Assembly: GCA_030445745.1 (NCBI GenBank)
Contig: JASUTE010000005.1
Location: forward strand, 68,501 to 132,500
From: Candidatus Cloacimonadota bacterium
GTDB taxonomy: Bacteria; Cloacimonadota; Cloacimonadia; Cloacimonadales; TCS61
Direction: 5' to 3'
Length of the DNA: 64,000 bases
The notes beneath the pieces were generated by a model. It was not told the origin of the DNA. It did not search any database and was given only the letters and a program-made list of their open reading frames with translations. This document shows positions 27,759 through 48,694 of this stretch, in pieces. How positions within the stretch are numbered: the first letter of the stretch is position 1; every line of letters begins with the position of its first letter. The translations under genes were made by a program, and so were the position numbers.

Positions 27759-27992
27759 TTATTTTAACATCTCTTCGCGCACCATAAGATTACCGCATTT
27801 GGGGCATTTTATATCAGTACATTTAGTTCCGCGCTGATGGGGAATAGTTGTGCGACATTTGGGGCAAACACAGTTGCCGCCGGGACCATAAGCACCTCCA
27901 TTATTGCGGCCTTGGCCTCCTTGGTTAAAGTTTCTTCCCATTCCTCTGCCTTGTCCACCACCATGTGGACCGGTTCCATCTCTATTTGGCAT
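27759..27992 (-). CDS. DUF5320-like small protein with Gly-rich linker and C-terminal zinc ribbon
   Basis: 77 aa. N-terminal 'MPNRDGTGPHGGGQGRGMGR' is a DUF5320-type start, followed by 'CVCPKCRTT...CPKCGNLM' (CxxC-x17-CxxC). AGGAGGAG SD. Confidence 0.7.
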   Translation of the reverse strand: MPNRDGTGPHGGGQGRGMGRNFNQGGQGRNNGGAYGPGGNCVCPKCRTTIPHQRGTKCTDIKCPKCGNLMVREEMLK

Positions 27993-28263
27993 TTGTCTCC
28001 TCCTTTTTATCTTCCAAAATTTCGTAGTCTTTGCTTTCTATTACGGTGTGCTCTTGCTGCTCGATATTTTTCTTTTTGCTACCCAGTTTACGGAATATCT
28101 TGCGGGAAATGCTATCTGGTTTGCGCAGATCGTTTATGATAGCACCAACTAAGGGTGCTACAACGGTCTTCCAAAAAGAAAAATTTCTCCCGCCGCTATT
28201 TGTTGTATTATTTCTACGACGACGACCATGACCACGCGGGCCAGTTCCATCTCTATTTGGCAT
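27982..28263 (-). CDS. DUF5320-like small protein (paralog, basic N-terminus, acidic tail)
   Basis: 93 aa. It has the same 'MPNRDGTGP' start, and 20 nt are identical between 28244-28263 and 27973-27992. GAGGAGAG SD. It overlaps the next gene by 11 nt. Confidence 0.65.
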   Translation of the reverse strand: MPNRDGTGPRGHGRRRRNNTTNSGGRNFSFWKTVVAPLVGAIINDLRKPDSISRKIFRKLGSKKKNIEQQEHTVIESKDYEILEDKKEETNAK

Positions 28264-28338: not shown

Positions 28339-28361
28339 ATATTTAATCTTAAAATTGTTAG

Positions 28362-28390
28362 AAAAAAAACCACTCTGTCTGATAGAGTGG
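28362..28390 (-). terminator. Rho-independent terminator downstream of the sigma-factor pair
   Basis: The minus strand reads CCACTCT-atcagac-AGAGTGG followed by T8 (plus-strand A-run at 28362-28369). The plus-strand side is also followed by T-rich sequence, so it may be bidirectional. Confidence 0.6.
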
Positions 28391-28552
28391 CTTTTGGTGC
28401 TTTTTTTTCTTATTATCATAGTATTCATCCATATCTAAATTAATTTGAGCCATTATTCTCCTCTTTATTTTGATTTTTGCTTAACCCAAGTTAAGAAGAA
28501 TGAATTTTGGCTCAATTATTTTTAACCACTTTTTGGATGTTATCTTTCTGAA

Positions 28553-29527
28553 TTATGCTTCACTTTTATCTCGGCTATATATTACTTTTATTTCCCCTTT
28601 GCCGTTTATGAATTCCATAATTTCTTCTCTTTTCATTTTTAAGGTTCCATCTTTTTTGGTTTGCATTATTATGTCTTTGATTTCTTTATCAACTTGAAAT
28701 TCTAATATCTTTTGAGGTGGTTGAGGAAATTGAATTATCTTAATAGCATTTTCATTATAGATTTCAAATTTTGTGATGAAACAAGAAAAAAAACCATCTA
28801 AATTGTAGTAGTTTACATAAAGTTCATACGTTTTATTATCTATCAATTTTATGCTATAATTTAATATTTTTTTTATATGAATATCTGGTATTTTCGAAGG
28901 TATTTCACATTCCCGGAAATATAGCTTCATCTTTTCTAAAGAATTTGTTTCTAAGGCATTTTTGAATTTTTTAATAAAGTTAATTAAATTTTCATGCAGT
29001 TTAGCACCAACAATAGCCCTAGAAGCTATCATACCATGTTGTTTGTTATACTCAGCTCGTATTTCCCTTTTTAAGCGATAGAGGCGTTTACGTAAAGTGG
29101 AGTAACTAATCCCCTTTTTTATAGCTACTTGGCGAAGTTTTCTACCTTCGGCAATATATTTCTGCAAAAGTTCTTTATCAGATTCTTTTAAATCAATATT
29201 GTTTTCTTCCAAAACCTCCGAGAGTGTTTTAATCTGTTTATCCTCTAAAAAAGTTTCAGTATAGATGTTCTCTATTTTGTTAAAATCTACCGGGTTATTC
29301 AAAACATCTCTTTTCTGTTTCTTAAGCAGGTCAATAGCAGCATTCTTGGTGACTTTCTGGATCCAGCTTCTTAACTTTTCAGAATCTATCTTAGCAGAGT
29401 TTAAATAGTATTTCATATATACTAATACAAGAACATCTTCTTGGTCTTCTTGATTAGTTAGGTATTTTTTTAGTACTGGGATTGAATATCTCTTTATTTT
29501 GGAATATAATGTTTTATCTGCCTGCAT
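28553..29527 (-). CDS. ECF-like sigma-70 family factor with ~150-aa C-terminal extension (paralog 1)
   Basis: 324 aa. Region-2-like 'EDVLVLVYMKYY...LRSWIQKVTKNAAIDLLKK'. Region-4 HTH 'LLQKYIAEGRKLRQVAIKKGISYSTLRKRLYRLKREI'. The C-terminal domain is shared with the neighbouring gene. Confidence 0.7.
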   Translation of the reverse strand: MQADKTLYSKIKRYSIPVLKKYLTNQEDQEDVLVLVYMKYYLNSAKIDSEKLRSWIQKVTKNAAIDLLKKQKRDVLNNPVDFNKIENIYTETFLEDKQIKTLSEVLEENNIDLKESDKELLQKYIAEGRKLRQVAIKKGISYSTLRKRLYRLKREIRAEYNKQHGMIASRAIVGAKLHENLINFIKKFKNALETNSLEKMKLYFRECEIPSKIPDIHIKKILNYSIKLIDNKTYELYVNYYNLDGFFSCFITKFEIYNENAIKIIQFPQPPQKILEFQVDKEIKDIIMQTKKDGTLKMKREEIMEFINGKGEIKVIYSRDKSEA

Positions 29528-29544
29528 AATAATGGATTTTCTGG

Positions 29545-30528
29545 CTATTCTTCACTTTTATCTTGGTTATATATTTCTTTCATTTTACCTTTGCCTTTAA
29601 GGAATTCCATAATTTCTTCTCTTTTCATTTTTAAAGTTCCATCTTTTTGGGTTTGCATTATCGTTTCAATTATTGTCTTATCAAGATTTACTTTTATTAT
29701 TTTTTGTGGTGGTTTGGGAAATTCAACTATTTTTATAGAATTTTCATTATAGATTTCAAAAATCGTGATAAAACTCGAAAAAATTCCTTCTAAATTGAGA
29801 TAATTAACAAATAATTTGTATTTTTTATTATCAAGTAGTTTAATATCATAATCTAAAATTTCTTTTATTTTGATATCTGGAATTTTGTGAGATATTTCAC
29901 ATTCCCGGAAATATAGCTTCATCTTTTCTAAAGAATTTGTTTCTAAAGCATTTTTGAATTTTTTAAGAAAGTTTTGCAGATTTTCATGCAGTTTGGCCCC
30001 AACAATTAGGCGAGAAGCTATAATACCCTGCTGTTTATTGTATTCTGCCCTAATATCTGCTTTTAATCGATATATCCTTTTTTTTATTGCAGCAAAACTG
30101 GTACGGCGCCGATAAGCTAATTTTTTTATTTTAAATCCGGATTTGATATACCTTTCCAATAGCTGGCGCTCTGGTTGCGAAATAATCTTGCTATAATCTT
30201 TCAATATATCATCTAATGACTTAACTTCTTGCTTCTTTTTATCTTTAGTAAGAAAACTTTCGGTGATTATGTTTTCGAGGTCATCAAAATTGAGAGTTTT
30301 TTGGGAAATTTGGTGTTTTTTAGATTTATTATAATCTATACTGGCATTTTTAGCAACTGTGATTATCCAATTATTCAGGTTTTCTTTTTGTAGTTTGTCT
30401 TCATGCAAGTAATATTTAATTAATACTGTTTGAGCCAGGTCTTCTCTATCTTCCTGATTGCTAACATATTTACAAATAGTTCTGTAAGCTAAATTTTTAA
30501 CCTTCTGGTATAATTTTTCTTCCTGCAT
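29545..30528 (-). CDS. ECF-like sigma-70 family factor with ~150-aa C-terminal extension (paralog 2)
   Basis: 327 aa. Region-2-like 'EDLAQTVLIKYY...LNNWIITVAKNASIDYNK'. Region-4 HTH 'LLERYIKSGFKIKKLAYRRRTSFAAIKKRIYRLKADI'. A 17-nt gap separates it from paralog 1. Confidence 0.7.
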   Translation of the reverse strand: MQEEKLYQKVKNLAYRTICKYVSNQEDREDLAQTVLIKYYLHEDKLQKENLNNWIITVAKNASIDYNKSKKHQISQKTLNFDDLENIITESFLTKDKKKQEVKSLDDILKDYSKIISQPERQLLERYIKSGFKIKKLAYRRRTSFAAIKKRIYRLKADIRAEYNKQQGIIASRLIVGAKLHENLQNFLKKFKNALETNSLEKMKLYFRECEISHKIPDIKIKEILDYDIKLLDNKKYKLFVNYLNLEGIFSSFITIFEIYNENSIKIVEFPKPPQKIIKVNLDKTIIETIMQTQKDGTLKMKREEIMEFLKGKGKMKEIYNQDKSEE

Positions 30529-30588
30529 AAAAATATTCCTATATTAAACATTGGCTAATCATTTTAAAAGCAATCACTTAGTCCACTT

Positions 30589-30620
30589 TTCGTCCCCTTT
30601 CTACAAAAATATCGTATATA
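30589..30620 (+). promoter_or_regulatory. Bipartite promoter-like motif, copy 1 (TTCGTCCCCTTT-N12-CGTATATA)
   Basis: An exact 12-nt left box sits at 30589-30600 and an 8-nt right box at 30613-30620, with the same 12-nt spacing as copy 2. Read as TCGTCC-N17-CGTATA it has the geometry of an ECF-type promoter. Confidence 0.45.
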
Positions 30621-30762
30621 ACAGTAGAAGGAGGAACTAAAGATAAAAAATAGATTGAATTATTATCGTCAATAAATATATCGTGGCTTGGTGATAGAAA
30701 GAGGGAAATTGTGCATTTTAAGGATGCTGTAATTGTAATTATTGTAAGCAGTTAACTTAGAA

Positions 30763-30794
30763 TTCGTCCCCTTTTTCAGTTTTGTTCGTATATA
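30763..30794 (+). promoter_or_regulatory. Bipartite promoter-like motif, copy 2 (TTCGTCCCCTTT-N12-CGTATATA)
   Basis: Identical boxes at 30763-30774 and 30787-30794. It ends 20 nt before the AGGAGG (30815-30820) of the 65-aa ORF. Confidence 0.5.
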
Positions 30795-30825
30795 TAAGTG
30801 AAAGCAAAAATATTAGGAGGCTACG

Positions 30826-31023
30826 ATGAAAAAGTTTTTATTAGTTATTTTTTTAATCAGTGTATTGACCAGTGGATTATTTGCAGTTGAATCGAATATA
30901 GATACAAGTAAATTGGAAGAGATTAGCTGGGAAGAAGTAGGAGATAATGCTGTTATATATGAAGTTGGTGATGGTTATTGTATCGTTGTAATAGGTGATG
31001 ATGTTTACATTGTTTTCGAATAG
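30826..31023 (+). CDS. Small exported protein (65 aa, signal peptide + acidic ~45-aa mature part)
   Basis: AGGAGG lies 5 nt upstream. 'MKKFLLVIFLISVLTSGLFA/VES' looks like a Sec signal. The mature part is rich in E, D, V and I. I recognise no family. Confidence 0.6.
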   Translation: MKKFLLVIFLISVLTSGLFAVESNIDTSKLEEISWEEVGDNAVIYEVGDGYCIVVIGDDVYIVFE

Positions 31024-31033
31024 AGGATAAATC

Positions 31034-31258
31034 ATGAAAGTTCGCGATGAGATCCGGAAAATGCTCTACGAAATGGAATTGGAGAATCCTGGAATATTGG
31101 ATAGATATTCGGAAAAGGATATAAACAGGATACCGGAGATAAAAGCGATACTTGAACAGAAAAAATTCAAAAAAATAATAAATTTCAAAGTAGTTAGAAA
31201 AAATAAAAATGAACAATTGGAGTCTCTTAAGTCAATAAAGTTTAATTTTTTAATATAA
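31034..31258 (+). CDS. Small hypothetical protein (74 aa, charged, no signal peptide)
   Basis: GAGGA lies 6 nt upstream, 10 nt after the preceding stop. A strong terminator follows. I recognise no family. Confidence 0.5.
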   Translation: MKVRDEIRKMLYEMELENPGILDRYSEKDINRIPEIKAILEQKKFKKIINFKVVRKNKNEQLESLKSIKFNFLI

Positions 31259-31294
31259 TTTCTCTCTAAATTCCTCTCTAAAACTAATAAAGTG

Positions 31295-31328
31295 GCCACT
31301 CTTGCCCGCAGAGTGGCTCTTTTTTTTT
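31295..31328 (+). terminator. Rho-independent terminator after the small-gene pair
   Basis: An 8-bp stem, GCCACTCT (31295-31302) with AGAGTGGC (31310-31317), has a 7-nt loop and is followed by TCTTTTTTTTT. Confidence 0.7.
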
Positions 31329-31792: not shown

Positions 31793-31869
31793 TGGTGTGC
31801 CCGAGAGGATTCGAACCCCCGACACCCAGAACCGGAATCTGGTGCTCTATCCAGCTGAGCTACGGGCAC
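31793..31869 (-). tRNA. tRNA-Arg (anticodon CCG), CCA encoded
   Basis: The reverse complement folds by hand. Acceptor GTGCCCG/CGGGCAC, D-arm GCTC-AGCTGGATA-GAGC, anticodon arm CCAGA-TTCCGGT-TCTGG, T-arm GGGGG-TTCGAAT-CCTCT, discriminator A, then CCA. Confidence 0.9.
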
Positions 31870-45178: not shown

Positions 45179-45523
45179 TTAGCAAGTTAAATGAAAAGCA
45201 GCGACAACTTGACTTTCTTTGGATATTCTATTAAATTCTTCCACTGTTTTACCAGTTTTGTGTGATATCAGCTTGATTTTGTTATCATCTAGCATCTTCT
45301 GGAAATTCGTATCGACCTTCATCAAACCGTAATAGCCAGTACCAATTATTACTAATTCTGGTTTAACTTCCAGTAATGTAGGAATATCTTCTTTCTGCAA
45401 AAGATGTCCCTTTTGTCGCCACCAATTGTCTTGTATTTTTCCAGAGGGCCAAATTATCAGATCTTTAACAAATTCCTGGCCATTGATCTGCATTTTACCA
45501 AATGTATATTTCTCTATTTTCAT
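45179..45523 (-). CDS. Mth938-like (DUF498) domain protein
   Basis: 114 aa. 'FGKMQINGQEFVKDLIIWP', 'PELVIIGTGYYG' and 'VVAAFHLTC' match the Mth938/NDUFAF3-type fold pattern. Confidence 0.6.
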   Translation of the reverse strand: MKIEKYTFGKMQINGQEFVKDLIIWPSGKIQDNWWRQKGHLLQKEDIPTLLEVKPELVIIGTGYYGLMKVDTNFQKMLDDNKIKLISHKTGKTVEEFNRISKESQVVAAFHLTC

Positions 45524-46491
45524 TTCAGTGATTCAAAATATAATTGGCTATTATTTTTATTTATTACAAGTTGAAAATTCATATCTTTTGGCTTTATCAA
45601 TTTTATTTCTTCTTTATCTATCAGCTTCCGGTCAGATGGAATATAGAAATATTTTTTTATGCTATCCCAATCCTTATTCCTCAAGGTTCTTATTTTGTTT
45701 AAATAGTAACTAACCCAATTATTTCCTATTTTTGAATCAGGATTAGTTTTGCTTAACTTTTCTCTTGAGACTTCAACATATTTTTGATCTAATTCGAAAC
45801 CAATATAGTTTCTACCAAGCCTTTTAGCAGCTATTGCTGTTGTACCTGTTCCCATAAATGGATCAAAAACAATGTCGTTTTCATCTGTACTCATTAAAAC
45901 TAATCTTTCAAGAAGATGAATTGGAAGTTGGCATGGGTGTGGGTCTCTATTTTTATTATGCTTTATTCTATGTATATCTGTCCAAACATCAGAAACTAAA
46001 GGACCAAAAGGGTGTACTTTAGCTTTTTTACCTCCATAATCCTTTAAAAGGTAACCGGTTTTACGGTCTCTTTTGTGTGGATATCTGATTTCATTAAATT
46101 TTATTTTTTTCTCATCTTTGGCATAAAAAAGAATTCCATAATGGGCTGGTTGTAATGTTTTTCCCATTGGCGCTGTTGGAGCGTCCCAACTAATCCAATG
46201 TTTAAAAAATGCTATTTTATTCAGTATAGCAGAAAAATAAGTTAACCATTTAGGTATATTATGAATATAAATAGAACCGGTAGGTTTTGTAACTCTAACC
46301 ATTTCTGAAATCCATTTTTCACACCATGAAATATAATCTTTAAATTCTAAAGAGTCTTTATAACTGTTATATTTCTTTTTTAAATTGAAGGGTGGATCGG
46401 CAAAGCTCATATCAACAAAATTATCTGGGATTCTTTTAAATAATTCTAGACAATCACCTTGAATAATGGAATTAATCGTATCTTTTTTCAT
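45520..46491 (-). CDS. DNA methyltransferase, beta-class N6_N4 type (motif IV before motif I)
   Basis: 323 aa. Motif IV 'DMSFADPPFNL' lies near the N-terminus and motif I 'VFDPFMGTGTTAIAAKRLGRNYIGFE' near residue 210. 4-nt overlaps with both neighbours. Confidence 0.85.
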   Translation of the reverse strand: MKKDTINSIIQGDCLELFKRIPDNFVDMSFADPPFNLKKKYNSYKDSLEFKDYISWCEKWISEMVRVTKPTGSIYIHNIPKWLTYFSAILNKIAFFKHWISWDAPTAPMGKTLQPAHYGILFYAKDEKKIKFNEIRYPHKRDRKTGYLLKDYGGKKAKVHPFGPLVSDVWTDIHRIKHNKNRDPHPCQLPIHLLERLVLMSTDENDIVFDPFMGTGTTAIAAKRLGRNYIGFELDQKYVEVSREKLSKTNPDSKIGNNWVSYYLNKIRTLRNKDWDSIKKYFYIPSDRKLIDKEEIKLIKPKDMNFQLVINKNNSQLYFESLK

Positions 46492-47459
46492 TTGTAGCTT
46501 TCTAATAATTTTTTAAATCTATCAATTTCATCTCCATGAAAGGTGAAAACATCTTCATAAGCGGTAACCATTCTATGTAAATCACCTTTGCGAACATACC
46601 ATCCAATTCCATCGACAAAACCATAAAATTTTGCTTTAGGATAATTTTGTTTAATCAGTCTATTAATTTGTAATTCTGTTTTTGATTTATCGCCTTGTCC
46701 TGAGGAAGTAGTAGCTAAAAAAGAGCATTCAATAATAATTCTAGGATCATTTTTATCAGGTATAATAAAATCCATTGTTCTTTTACTATCATGGGCATTC
46801 GTTATCAATTCATTTAGATCACCTGATTCATAATTTATATTTAGGTTATCTAATATTTGTCCAATTACAGTTTCTGGATTATTTTTCTTCTTTCCTGAAT
46901 AGCTTCCTTTTTCTTTATACCTAATTATTGTATCTATTAACTGATGAGTATCGAAAGTTAGTTTTCCAATACTTAGCTTTTTTAATTCAAACAGTGGTAT
47001 TGTTTCTGATAAAATTCTTATAGAACTACCTTCAAAGAAAAGATTAACAATTCCTTTACGGAAATATTTATTTCTTCGTACTAAATTATTTATTTTTGAG
47101 TCAGACCATTCCGTAATATTGACAATGTCAATTGTATCATCACACCATTTATCTTTAAGTGTTATCTCATTTAATTCTTTACAATTTATAATTCTGCTTA
47201 AAGTAATTAAGCGTTTAAATGACTCGTTAGAAAATCCAGTAAGTGCAAGTAATGCTCTTAAACCATTATCTTTTTTTTGTAGTAGATCTTCAAATATTTC
47301 TTTTTTCAGTCCGTTATTATCTATTTTATTTTTTACATTCAGTAGTGTTTCTGTTAAAGAAATGATATAACCTTCATAATCTTCTTCAAATTTTGAATTG
47401 AAAAAATAAAATGTATTTTTTTGAACTATCGTATTAACTTTTTCTTCTAGAGTTCTCAT
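46488..47459 (-). CDS. Putative type II restriction endonuclease (PD-(D/E)xK-like core)
   Basis: 323 aa, located between two methyltransferase genes. 'RTMDFIIPDKNDPRIIIECSFLATTSSGQGDKSKTE' resembles the D...E-x-K/S nuclease core with the following GS/K helix seen in DpnII/MboI-like enzymes. The specific family is not certain. Confidence 0.6.
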   Translation of the reverse strand: MRTLEEKVNTIVQKNTFYFFNSKFEEDYEGYIISLTETLLNVKNKIDNNGLKKEIFEDLLQKKDNGLRALLALTGFSNESFKRLITLSRIINCKELNEITLKDKWCDDTIDIVNITEWSDSKINNLVRRNKYFRKGIVNLFFEGSSIRILSETIPLFELKKLSIGKLTFDTHQLIDTIIRYKEKGSYSGKKKNNPETVIGQILDNLNINYESGDLNELITNAHDSKRTMDFIIPDKNDPRIIIECSFLATTSSGQGDKSKTELQINRLIKQNYPKAKFYGFVDGIGWYVRKGDLHRMVTAYEDVFTFHGDEIDRFKKLLESYK

Positions 47460-48694
47460 ATTTCCTTCCTAAAGAATAAGATGTTTTCTTCTTTCATTGT
47501 ATTTCTCATACCTTTTATAGGTTTAATAATATTTTTTTTTAATTTTAGATTATACTTACTACAAGATGCTATAATACTTGTTTCTAGCTTAATTCCTCCA
47601 GTTTGTTTGGTATTTGAACCAATTATCATTACAAGAAATTTACCATTTTTAAGCACTCTGGAAATTTCTTTACAAACTTTATCCATTTCAATAAAATAAT
47701 TTTCTAGCCTTTCTTTTTTGTTTCTTCCCATTAGACCTATCATTTTTTCTCTTAATTTGTTAATATTAACACCAAAATATTCCAAATGTGGCTTATCATT
47801 TTTAAGATAGTCGATGGCAAAAGAATATGGTGGTGACGTAATTACTCCATCTACCGAACCATTATTTATTTTTAAATTAGTAGCGGTAGAATTATCTAAA
47901 ATTTTAAGATTACCTAATTTGCTAGTATTTTTTTTATTAAAATTTAAAACAGTTTCTACATATCTTTTAAGCACTTTTTTAAATAATTGTTTGTGGCTTG
48001 ATTGTTTCACTCTTTTTGAATAACCTAAAGCGTCTAAGTATGCTAATAATACTAAATTATATATTTTCTCTTTCTTCACTAATTGTGCTTTTTTCAACAT
48101 ATCTGGATAAGAATTTGTAGATAAGAAATAAAAGAACTCTTCAGTTTTATCTGTTATTTTGGATAACAGATTAATATCTAAATCTAGGCTTTCATATTTT
48201 ACTTTAGTCATAAATTTACAGAAGGGGCTTAAATCAGCTGCATAAGAGTTTATTCCCATCAAACTTGCCTCAATGTTTGTTGTTCCACTACCACACATAG
48301 GGTCTAGTATAGTCTCTCTTTTTTTTATTCCAATTATATTCATAATAGCTTTAATTAATTGTGGATGAAACTTACCTCTATAAGGAAATAATCCATGTGT
48401 AGCATATCCGGTTGAAAATTTTCCATTTTTAAAATAGTTATTAGTTAATTGTGATCTATTTTTATCATTTTCAATGAAGCTATTATAACATAGTTGAAAA
48501 TGTTTAGTTTTTATATTTCCAATACTTTCAAAATAAGCACCTCTATTTATCAATTCTTTTCTTTTCAACATTTTAAATTCCAAATATGCAAGTCTTAGTT
48601 CAAACAATTCAGTTACTGAAGGTAAAAGAATTATATCCTTTTGAAATATTAGATTTTCAATGTCTTCTAGTTCAAAAAATGTTTTTTTCATCAC
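47456..48694 (-). CDS. DNA methyltransferase, motif I before motif IV, SPPY catalytic motif (N4-cytosine or N6-adenine)
   Basis: 412 aa. Motif I 'ILDPMCGSGTTNIEA' is followed about 165 aa later by motif IV 'GVITSPPYSFAIDY'. The ATGA overlaps the hslU stop. Confidence 0.8.
   Translation of the reverse strand: MMKKTFFELEDIENLIFQKDIILLPSVTELFELRLAYLEFKMLKRKELINRGAYFESIGNIKTKHFQLCYNSFIENDKNRSQLTNNYFKNGKFSTGYATHGLFPYRGKFHPQLIKAIMNIIGIKKRETILDPMCGSGTTNIEASLMGINSYAADLSPFCKFMTKVKYESLDLDINLLSKITDKTEEFFYFLSTNSYPDMLKKAQLVKKEKIYNLVLLAYLDALGYSKRVKQSSHKQLFKKVLKRYVETVLNFNKKNTSKLGNLKILDNSTATNLKINNGSVDGVITSPPYSFAIDYLKNDKPHLEYFGVNINKLREKMIGLMGRNKKERLENYFIEMDKVCKEISRVLKNGKFLVMIIGSNTKQTGGIKLETSIIASCSKYNLKLKKNIIKPIKGMRNTMKEENILFFRKEI

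Follow-up and report, generated by a model that had tools for sequence, protein, structure and literature searches.

Tandem ECF-type sigma factors with a shared, recombining C-terminal domain at a low-GC locus of a Cloacimonadota bacterium

The 64,000-nucleotide stretch of contig JASUTE010000005.1 (assembly GCA_030445745.1) from a Candidatus Cloacimonadota bacterium, referred to here as the window, carries two adjacent genes, sigma A and sigma B, each encoding a minimal extracytoplasmic function (ECF) sigma factor fused to a soluble C-terminal domain (CTD) of about 160 residues. Alignments and trees made with related loci show that the sigma halves have been stable in recent evolution while the CTD is the recombining, fast-turning half, a patchwork at the DNA level assembled by gene conversion between the tandem paralogs and by exchange between strains. 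The pair probably belongs to a self-contained, low-GC regulatory module of about 3 kb (about 28,360-31,320) made of two divergent operons between two terminators. The overall explanation that we favor, with somewhat more confidence than doubt, joins this terminator-bounded module to paired Cloacimonadota ECF sigma factors whose recombining CTDs would regulate them in cis and to a promoter that would serve a divergent small gene. The regulatory mechanism is what we infer from this pattern and from analogy to better-known ECF groups.

Tandem sigma factors and the history of their two halves

Sigma A (28553-29527, minus strand, 324 residues) and sigma B (29545-30528, minus strand, 327 residues) are open reading frame (ORF) calls separated by 17 nt (29528-29544, minus strand), from the stop codon of sigma B to the start codon of sigma A, and are presumably cotranscribed. 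An earlier note on this DNA had given exactly these two ORFs, lengths, strand, and spacer, and had read both products as ECF proteins with a C-terminal extension free of transmembrane segments. That reading held when hidden Markov models were run. Sigma70_r2 (PF04542) scored 27.6 bits with sigma A and 39.9 bits with sigma B, both above the cutoff of 24, and TIGR02937, the NCBIfam model of the ECF superfamily, scored 47.4 and 42.9 bits at a cutoff of 42.9, covering about residues 3-161. For region 4, PF08281 gave 14.5 bits with sigma A (cutoff 25.7) and nothing with sigma B; the TIGR02937 alignment reaches model positions 163/165, region 4 included, and an AlphaFold2 (AF2) model of sigma B has helices from H2-18 through H145-166, with those of sigma4 at 118-166. 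Only sigma2 and sigma4 are present, regions 1.1 and 3 being absent, in a core of about 165 residues as judged from the full-length TIGR02937 match. In sigma B the core (residues 1-165: sigma2, linker, and sigma4, delimited by TIGR02937 and the AF2 helices) occupies 30034-30528 and the CTD (residues 166-327) 29548-30033; the CTD of sigma A (residues 163-324) lies at 28556-29041, all on the minus strand. No transmembrane segment was found in either protein, the highest 19-residue Kyte-Doolittle mean (KD19) being 0.77 in A and 1.36 in B.

Matches to PDB sequences were weak and fell on the ECF sigma factors SigH, SigW, and SigE, and the Foldseek matches of the sigma B model include ECF sigma structures. 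None of the NCBIfam equivalog or subfamily models came near its own cutoff with either sigma; the best named equivalog was SigZ (NF007215), at 47.7 and 41.1 bits for a cutoff of 212. By these profile and structure matches, both proteins are ECF-type (group-4) sigma factors. Cloacimonetes are not mentioned in the main text of the paper on ECF classification 2.0.

Identity between the two proteins, 57% overall by BLASTP, is distributed as a mosaic. The sigma halves are 37% identical (sigma2, 43%; linker, 25%; sigma4, 44%), against 75% for the CTDs (helix part, 89%; sheet, 68%; tail, 70%), so that the estimate of about one-third identity in the earlier note stands for the sigma halves, while its description of the proteins as nearly the same from IRAEYNKQ onward was overstated. 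The blocks of 54 and 33 identical nucleotides that it placed at a 992-nt offset are exact. The first (28901-28954 in A, 29893-29946 in B) is followed, after one mismatch, by a further match that had been put at 18 nt and measures 19 nt (28956-28974), and together they make up a recent conversion tract (28901-28974 in A, 29893-29966 in B, minus strand) that encodes part of an invariant helix (KNALETNSLEKMKLYFRE...). The second tract (28610-28642 in A, 29602-29634 in B, minus strand) is the run of 33 nt in the tail of the CTD. Two shorter stretches, of 21 nt and of 15 nt, are identical as well.

Codon use at residues that are identical in A and B separates two contributions to this likeness. Codon bias sets a baseline of 46% same-codon use, seen in the sigma half. 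The value is 87% across alignment columns 181-225 and 81% across columns 271-328, and the sigma half differs from the CTD at a Fisher p of 8e-4. In columns 161-180, amino acid identity is 80% and same-codon use only 0.47. Because these conserved columns sit at the baseline and the two tracts lie above it, purifying selection and recent homogenization of the DNA are both at work. In other strains, the 54-nt block differs at synonymous sites, evidence for recent conversion and against a universal element at the DNA or RNA level.

The two halves have different histories. Between A and B, synonymous divergence (dS) in the sigma half is saturated (proportion of synonymous differences, pS, about 0.86). 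In a bootstrapped neighbor-joining tree of sigma halves, the A sequences form a clade with 99% support, and identity is 62-99% within A, 80-100% within B, and 32-44% between A and B. Members from the window lineage and from the divergent L003 lineage are found in the A clade as well as in the B clade, and single-copy relatives branch outside both clades, nearer to B (39-44% identity). Because each clade contains both lineages, the comparison shows that the duplication is old and predates the splits of strains and species, with both sigma halves under purifying selection. The CTD tree mixes the two types, joining L011_A to L012_B (100% bootstrap) and L013_B to L012_A1 (85%).

The same disagreement appears inside single genes, where dS steps up by as much as 14-fold: 0.10 in the sigma half and 1.49 in the CTD between sigma B of the window and L007_B, 0.00 and 0.27 between sigma A of the window and L001_A, and 0.12 and 0.98 between L012_A1 and L011_A. 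The ratio of nonsynonymous to synonymous divergence (omega) in the sigma half of orthologs is 0.04-0.29. The window and L001 share about 100% identity along 1.35 kb, interrupted by a single patch of roughly 150 nt in the CTD of sigma A (28763-28912, minus strand, about CTD codons 45-95), in which L001_A is 93-95% identical to L013_B, a B-type gene from another strain. Sigma B of the window matches L007_B at 93-95% as far as about CTD codon 40 and at 39-68% thereafter. Such breakpoints flank the invariant helix. The gene conversion that the earlier note suspected in the extension is thus borne out by the same-codon tracts, the mixed CTD tree, and the dS steps; its accompanying picture, of a diversifying promoter-recognition half and a constrained extra domain, has to be turned around, given the low omega of the sigma halves, the contrast of 1.49 with 0.10 in dS, and the age of the A/B split.

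The number of copies also differs among strains, since some carry a third tandem sigma-CTD gene: L012 contains B, A1, and the start of A2 (1935-2108) with 17-nt spacers, and third copies occur in L011 and L013 as well. The 17-nt spacing recurs in L003 and in L009-L013, including L012. This variation in array size, like the divergent gene for a secreted protein and the two-part intergenic motif described below, was absent from the earlier note.

Two simpler accounts of the A/B likeness have to be weighed against this history. That strong purifying selection on the protein alone, with no exchange of DNA, keeps the CTDs similar is largely refuted, and we regard it as barely tenable. It accommodates a CTD core that is invariant across the family even at 45% overall identity, the baseline codon use of columns 161-180, and the pair of the L003 lineage, in which synonymous identity is also at baseline; it does not account for same-codon use of 0.87 and 0.81 in two tracts where 0.46 is expected, for perfect blocks of 54 and 33 nt of which the longer varies synonymously elsewhere, for a CTD tree that mixes types at 85-100% bootstrap, or for the dS steps within genes. 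Almost as improbable, in our judgment, is that the duplication or the mosaics are artefacts of assembly, the product of collapsed or chimeric joins across the CTD repeat in mixed-strain metagenomes. The source is an uncultured organism of the kind known from metagenome-assembled genomes, and related contigs often end at or inside the pair (L001 begins in the tail of B, and L007-L013 span 1.3-3.2 kb), as such joins would predict. Yet the sigma halves of the window genes differ by 63%, which leaves no collapsed repeat, the longest perfect repeat (54 nt) is shorter than typical assembly k-mers, the tandem layout recurs in independent NCBI, JGI, and Logan assemblies, and P0001, a cluster with 8 sequences from 3 contigs, has the very sequence of sigma B in the window.

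The fused domain, its family, and the divergent partner gene

The CTD found no relative by sequence in Pfam, NCBIfam, or the PDB at E <= 10, and the Pfam models of the SnoaL/NTF2 clan matched none of 15 CTDs at E <= 10. Conservation across the family is concentrated in a helix (L..NI.NF.KKFK..LE.N.L.KM..YF), a strand (F...F.I...N.IKI..FP), and a G near the tail; in the pair the invariant helix reads IVGAKLHENL..NF..KFK..LE.NSLEKMKLYF and the invariant strand FEIYNEN.IKI..FP, and the extension contains one conserved Cys. An AF2 model of the CTD alone, built on an alignment of 15 family sequences, reached a predicted local distance difference test (pLDDT) score of 77.4 and a predicted template modeling (pTM) score of 0.68, and combines two helices, one long and one short, with an antiparallel sheet of five strands and a small tail of helix and strand. 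All of its top Foldseek matches in the PDB are NTF2-like (the CaMKII hub, VirB8-like OrfG, KSI-like proteins, AtzH, and TcpC). These matches are weak, with E values of 0.015-0.2, none at E <= 0.001, and TM-scores of at most 0.54, from a shallow 15-sequence alignment; SigJ of Mycobacterium tuberculosis, an ECF41 protein, is not among the top 50, and the BFVD library of viral folds gave no meaningful match. On the strength of the model, the CTD is probably NTF2-like in fold. The guess of an NTF2/SnoaL-type extension in the earlier note is therefore plausible, if weakly so, as to fold and fails as to family.

The family defined by this domain is apparently restricted to one phylum. A word-indexed protein search retrieved 14 relatives, and an exhaustive profile search with the CTD only retrieved 113 cluster representatives from 1.84 billion proteins, 88 of them at E <= 1e-10. 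Nearly all are 305-345 residues long with the CTD at about residues 160-320, the same sigma-CTD architecture as in the window, and every family member with a named organism comes from Cloacimonadota, Ca. Tenebribacter burtonii and Ca. Tenebribacter mawsonii included. The TrmFO protein of the window is itself identical to one from a metagenome-assembled genome of Candidatus Cloacimonadota. A genome scan with a narrower CTD alignment, A2, of which the CTD of sigma A is a member, found 3 GTDB loci only. As a point of annotation, the gene call of P0013 (353 residues) holds the second L006 copy of the intergenic motif inside its N-terminal extension (L006, 608-720), and its sister P0014 starts 37 residues later; judged from these sequences, the start of P0013 was probably called too early.

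What accompanies the sigma gene most faithfully is a small gene on the opposite strand. Homologs of the 65-residue ORF at 30826-31023 (plus strand) lie divergently upstream of a sigma gene in 10 of 10 independent loci, those of the most distant family members included. The protein begins with a signal-peptide-like N terminus (KD19 2.35) and continues as a beta-rich domain of about 45 residues with the pattern LP.IS.E...G..Y.ILEV.D.Y.I....G.VY.V. It is followed in the same direction by a 74-residue ORF (31034-31258, plus strand) found in the pair-bearing lineage. Neither the 65-residue nor the 74-residue protein has a Pfam or NCBIfam match, and searches of PHROGs, PADLOC, Pfam, NCBIfam, and PDB sequences with these two proteins and the CTD returned nothing informative; beyond the generic sigma model, there was no phage or defense affiliation. 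We considered whether the small protein covaries with the CTD in the manner of a pherotype and rejected the idea, the CTD of L007 being 59% identical to that of sigma B in the window and its small protein about 95% identical.

In the single-copy loci L002, L006, L015, and L017, the small gene is followed by a gene for a receiver-only response regulator (L002, 5130-5507; L015, 2069-2461; L017, 3859-4323), the position that the 74-residue gene holds in the pair-bearing lineage. Histidine kinase genes, often of the PAS type beside the response regulator, lie nearby in L017 (2211-3707), L021 (2239-3879), and L016 (5917-8238). This arrangement suggests a two-component input into the module in single-copy relatives; the module of the window lineage contains no response regulator. 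No neighboring gene has a Pfam or NCBIfam match to an anti-sigma domain, in agreement with the remark of the earlier note that no anti-sigma gene lies next to the pair: the gene downstream of sigma B is its paralog sigma A, and the divergent partner comprises only a signal peptide and about 45 residues.

The intergenic motif and the bounds of the module

The 297-nt region between sigma B and the small gene contains two copies, in the same orientation, of a locus-specific motif, TATATACG-N15/16-GGGGACGAA, which in the sigma sense reads T[TC]T[CA]AC-TTATATATACG[AC]-N14/15-[AG]A-GGGGACGAA-N7-TTAA. The left copy (30752-30803, minus strand; TTTCAC-TTATATATACGA-N14-AAA-GGGGACGAA-N7-TTAA) abuts the start of the small gene, and on the plus strand it appears as TTCGTCCCC-N15-CGTATATA and precedes the ATG at 30826 by 31 nt. 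In the right copy (30578-30629, minus strand), the GGGGACGAA box ends 60 nt upstream of the ATG of sigma B. Within the window, GGGGACGAA occurs twice, both times here, against 0.12 occurrences expected by chance. Both copies are kept in L003, L007, L002, L006, L015, L036, and L039, and one in L016. Across 14 aligned copies, the blocks ATA.ACG, GGGGACGAA, and TAA are invariant, and the spacers vary in sequence at a fixed length. Of 31 matches in a metagenome-wide scan with the motif, 4 were genuine and all of these lay in this intergenic region; the other 27 were chance matches in unrelated DNA, and no further regulon members emerged from the scan.

ECF promoters are marked by a CGT in the -10 region and a spacer of 16 +/- 1 nt (PMC3426412). 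In the five lineages with a measurable TATA.ACG block, the -10-like CGT block lies 19-31 nt upstream of the ATG of the small gene, and L016, with an intergenic region of only 70 nt, has a single motif copy that can serve the small gene only. Because of this CGT/16-nt geometry, the distance to the ATG, and the copy in L016, we favor the left copy, read on the plus strand as TTCGTCCCC-N15/16-CGTATATA, as the most likely cognate promoter, of the ECF type, for the small-gene operon, an assignment that follows the known ECF promoters by analogy. Between the two copies is a TTATTGAC box (30668-30675, minus strand), conserved by eye in all aligned intergenic regions, which looks like a -35 element directed at the sigma operon; a consensus promoter scan did not call it.

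Two other readings of the region were tried and dropped. A leader hairpin proposed by eye for the motif was rejected, as RNAalifold found 0 consensus pairs across the 14 copies and Rfam matched only the tRNA. A mini-ORF after the right copy, with GTG-GAC-TAA or ATA starts, showed nothing conserved or canonical. We also observed by eye, in the intergenic regions of L002, L006, and L015, a long inverted repeat that spans the GGGGACGAA box of the left copy and is followed by T-runs (TTAGGCGCAAA...TTTGCGCCTAA in L002; ACAGGCGCAG...CTGCGCCTGT in L006), with apparent compensatory changes. It may be a bidirectional terminator or attenuator, and it is not evident in the window.

The module runs in the order sigma A, sigma B, intergenic region, 65-residue gene, 74-residue gene. 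It is closed on one side by a hairpin with a run of eight T residues downstream of sigma A (28362-28390, minus strand), the likely terminator of the sigma operon, and on the other by an intrinsic terminator of the small-gene operon (31294-31318, plus strand; 9-bp stem with 5 GC pairs and a tail of nine T residues). A low-GC block of 28-30% spans the whole module, and the edges of the trough coincide with the two terminators. The AT-richness reported in the earlier note is real: GC content is 28.9% in sigma A and 27.9% in sigma B, compared with 37.0% for the window, and falls to 23-24% in the lowest 300-nt segments. On inspection of the sequences preceding the three genes (30529-30570 for sigma B, 29528-29544 for sigma A, and 30786-30825 for the small gene), no Shine-Dalgarno sequence was recognizable for either sigma gene, and a perfect AGGAGG lies 5 nt before the ATG of the small gene.

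Several features lie at or beyond the edges of the module. Downstream of sigma A, a 31-residue ORF (28358-28453, minus strand; MAQINLDMDEYYDNKKKKHQKPLYQTEWFFF) with a strong ribosome-binding site of the AGGAG type has the terminator hairpin and T-run as its 3' end; it is also a called gene in L001 and may be either a genuine microprotein or a by-product of the terminator. Next come two overlapping ORFs on the minus strand, 27759-27992 (77 residues) and 27982-28263 (93 residues), both beginning MPNRDGTGP.G and both conserved in L001. The shorter has the CxxC...CxxC spacing typical of a zinc ribbon, and neither has a Pfam match at E <= 0.001. On the other side, a tRNA-Arg (CCG) gene (31793-31869, minus strand) stands just past QueF, some 0.5 kb from where the low-GC module ends, with no integrase or flanking repeats seen. 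A second low-GC patch (45520-48694, minus strand, 25-29% GC) adjoins hslU/hslV and resembles an inserted restriction-modification cassette, in which putative DNA methyltransferases of 323 residues (FADPPFN) and 412 residues (SPPYSF), recognized from motifs by eye, flank an unassigned 323-residue ORF. The tandem 323-residue ORFs at 45.5-47.5 kb were considered as relatives of the sigma pair and proved unrelated, one being methyltransferase-like by motif and the other the unassigned one.

Mechanism, alternatives, and relation to known systems

Under the explanation that we favor, crossovers would be seeded in the invariant helix and in the strand FEIYNEN.IKI..FP; they would keep the CTDs that reside in one genome alike and at the same time make the CTD the fastest-changing part between strains. 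By analogy, the CTD would most likely be an in-cis sensor or regulator of sigma activity, acting through a ligand or a partner protein, a role proposed because no anti-sigma factor is present and other ECF groups carry fused extensions. The sigma factor would drive the operon of the small secreted protein from the motif, in an arrangement of one sigma and one adjacent target as in ECF41.

A number of observations weigh against parts of this explanation. The regulatory role proposed for the CTD comes by analogy to ECF41 and ECF42 (PMC8999054), the fold assignment is weak for the reasons given above (no match at E <= 0.001, TM-scores of at most 0.54, 15 aligned sequences, and SigJ outside the top 50), and the full-length model, at a pTM of 0.43, gives no confident docking of the CTD on the sigma core. 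The two motif copies share one orientation, so they cannot each serve the adjacent divergent gene and the direction of the motif is ambiguous; the AAC usual in ECF promoters is missing from its upstream block, no obvious gene follows the right copy on the strand of the small gene, and among the most distant members of the family the motif becomes degenerate. Several of the inferences across strains use short metagenomic contigs (1.3-2.1 kb) that are possibly chimeric. Finally, synonymous identity in the L003 pair is 0.51, a baseline value and not a raised one, and conversion is for this reason better regarded as episodic than as constant.

Other accounts of the domain and the motif deserve comparison with this one. 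The CTD could be a module for protein-protein interaction instead of an in-cis ligand sensor, either an A-B oligomerization hub or a docking site for a single-domain response regulator, with co-resident CTDs kept matched because they must bind each other or one shared partner. We think this unlikely but worth keeping in view: oligomeric NTF2-like hubs (the CaMKII hub and VirB8-like proteins) are among the top structural matches, a receiver-only response regulator stands by the small gene in L002, L006, L015, and L017 with histidine kinases nearby in L017, L021, and L016, and co-resident CTDs are homogenized in the window lineage; that lineage, however, has no response regulator in its module, single-copy relatives retain the CTD where there is no paralog to partner, L003 is not homogenized, and the structural matches themselves are weak. 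A little less likely again is that the motif is the operator of another DNA-binding regulator or an RNA element of the 5' leader. The common orientation of the copies and a putative -35 without AAC would fit such an element, as would the Shine-Dalgarno-like character of GGGGACGAA, which serves as one for the sigma gene in L016, and the partial CCTCC/GGGG complementarity flanking some copies. The lack of consensus pairing and of an Rfam match speaks against an RNA, the order of block, 15-16-nt spacer, and block with an invariant CGT fits ECF promoters (PMC3426412), and in the listed neighborhoods Pfam recognized no other DNA-binding regulator, the recurrent regulators being receiver-only response regulators and histidine kinases.

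That the low-GC cassette arrived recently as a mobile or foreign island, and owes its oddities to horizontal transfer, seems improbable to us. GC content drops 8-9 points below that of the window over exactly the terminator-bounded module, the chromosomal site differs from that of single-copy relatives, which adjoin a radical-SAM gene, and the tRNA-Arg gene is close by. Even so, no integrase, transposase, or flanking repeats were noticed and no phage or defense match went beyond the generic sigma model, the synteny on the QueF side is common to divergent lineages (the window, L003, and L007), in other lineages, too, the GC content of family genes is 1-5 points lower than that of their flanks, and the sources found are all Cloacimonadota. 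More speculative still, and a long shot in our estimation, is that the CTD is an exchangeable specificity cassette whose segments are shuffled between tandem copies and genomes, diversifying sigma responses in the way of pherotypes or allelic receptors. The small protein would then be the output or an extracellular cue, and the histidine kinase and response regulator of the ancestral single-copy state would feed back onto the CTD. If true, this would be a route of ECF control not described before, combining domain-level cassette exchange with a loop through a secreted miniprotein, in an uncultured phylum.

A fused C-terminal regulator marks a class of ECF sigma factors that is recognized but poorly understood, and most of the groups so built remain unstudied (PMC8999054). 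What is new here is a compact, apparently Cloacimonadota-only group with a CTD that current domain libraries do not recognize and with an invariant partner gene. Because the candidate cognate promoter occurs only at this locus, it forms with the sigma factor a candidate orthogonal part, with a putative regulon of one member. The locus also provides a clear natural case of a regulator in which recombination acts on one domain and the other evolves clonally. In practice, caution is needed here, since short-read assemblies are broken or scrambled by the repeated CTD. The general picture of ECF regulation is not overturned.

The closest parallels are the groups defined by SnoaL-like extensions, namely, ECF41, ECF56, ECF205, ECF294, and ECF295 (PMC7826278, PMC8999054), and within them ECF41, known from SigJ and from Ecf41Bli of Bacillus licheniformis, which acts through a group-specific promoter on what is essentially a single adjacent target (PMC3426412). 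Like these, the sigma factors of the window combine a minimal core with a soluble extension of the NTF2-like superfold (about 100-150 residues in those groups), a likeness that is predicted and weak here, and, as in ECF41-type groups, there is no anti-sigma gene, one adjacent gene is conserved, and a group-specific, two-part, promoter-like motif is present at the locus. Of four features of ECF41 that were checked, three fail and only the missing anti-sigma factor is shared. The CTD matches neither SnoaL_2 nor another NTF2-clan model of Pfam at E <= 10. The neighbor in ECF41 is a COE gene (carboxymuconolactone decarboxylase, oxidoreductase, or epimerase), and here the neighbors are the secreted protein of about 65 residues, the 74-residue protein, and the MPNRDGTGP ORFs. 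The ECF41 promoter, TGTCACA-n16-CGTC, has 0 matches in the window, where TTCGTCCCC-N15/16-CGTATATA is found instead. An extra alpha/beta tail on the CTD, the confinement to Cloacimonadota, and domain-restricted conversion in tandem paralogs further set the present group apart.

ECF42, one of the ECF groups regulated through a C-terminal extension that binds a partner protein, offers a similar mixture of likeness and difference. It too has a fused extension in place of an anti-sigma factor and a conserved neighbor suspected of a part in regulation (PMC8999054), but its extension is a tetratricopeptide repeat (TPR) domain of about 200 residues and its neighbor YCII-like, in contrast to the alpha+beta domain, the secreted miniprotein, and the frequent receiver-only response regulator seen here. 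SigZ of Bacillus subtilis (ECF238), the best named match to the core, likewise has no anti-sigma factor (PMC7826278), but the scores fall far short of its cutoff, and its tail is a Cys-rich segment of about 20 residues where the present CTD has about 160 residues and one conserved Cys. The canonical ECF pair differs in having a cotranscribed protein with a cytoplasmic anti-sigma domain (ASD), often together with a transmembrane helix, which is missing here.

The pattern of change has its own parallel in the concerted evolution of tandem paralogs by gene conversion limited to the segment that retains sufficient sequence identity, with which it shares tract-wise synonymous identity, segment phylogenies that disagree, and tracts bounded by conserved sequence. 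Here, however, the process concerns one domain of a two-domain regulator and is joined by the import of divergent CTD segments between strains, so that the CTD is similar within a genome and yet is the more divergent half between strains. Taken by analogy, the system appears to be a variation on the known theme of an ECF sigma factor with a fused regulatory extension, and it is from that theme that we infer its function.

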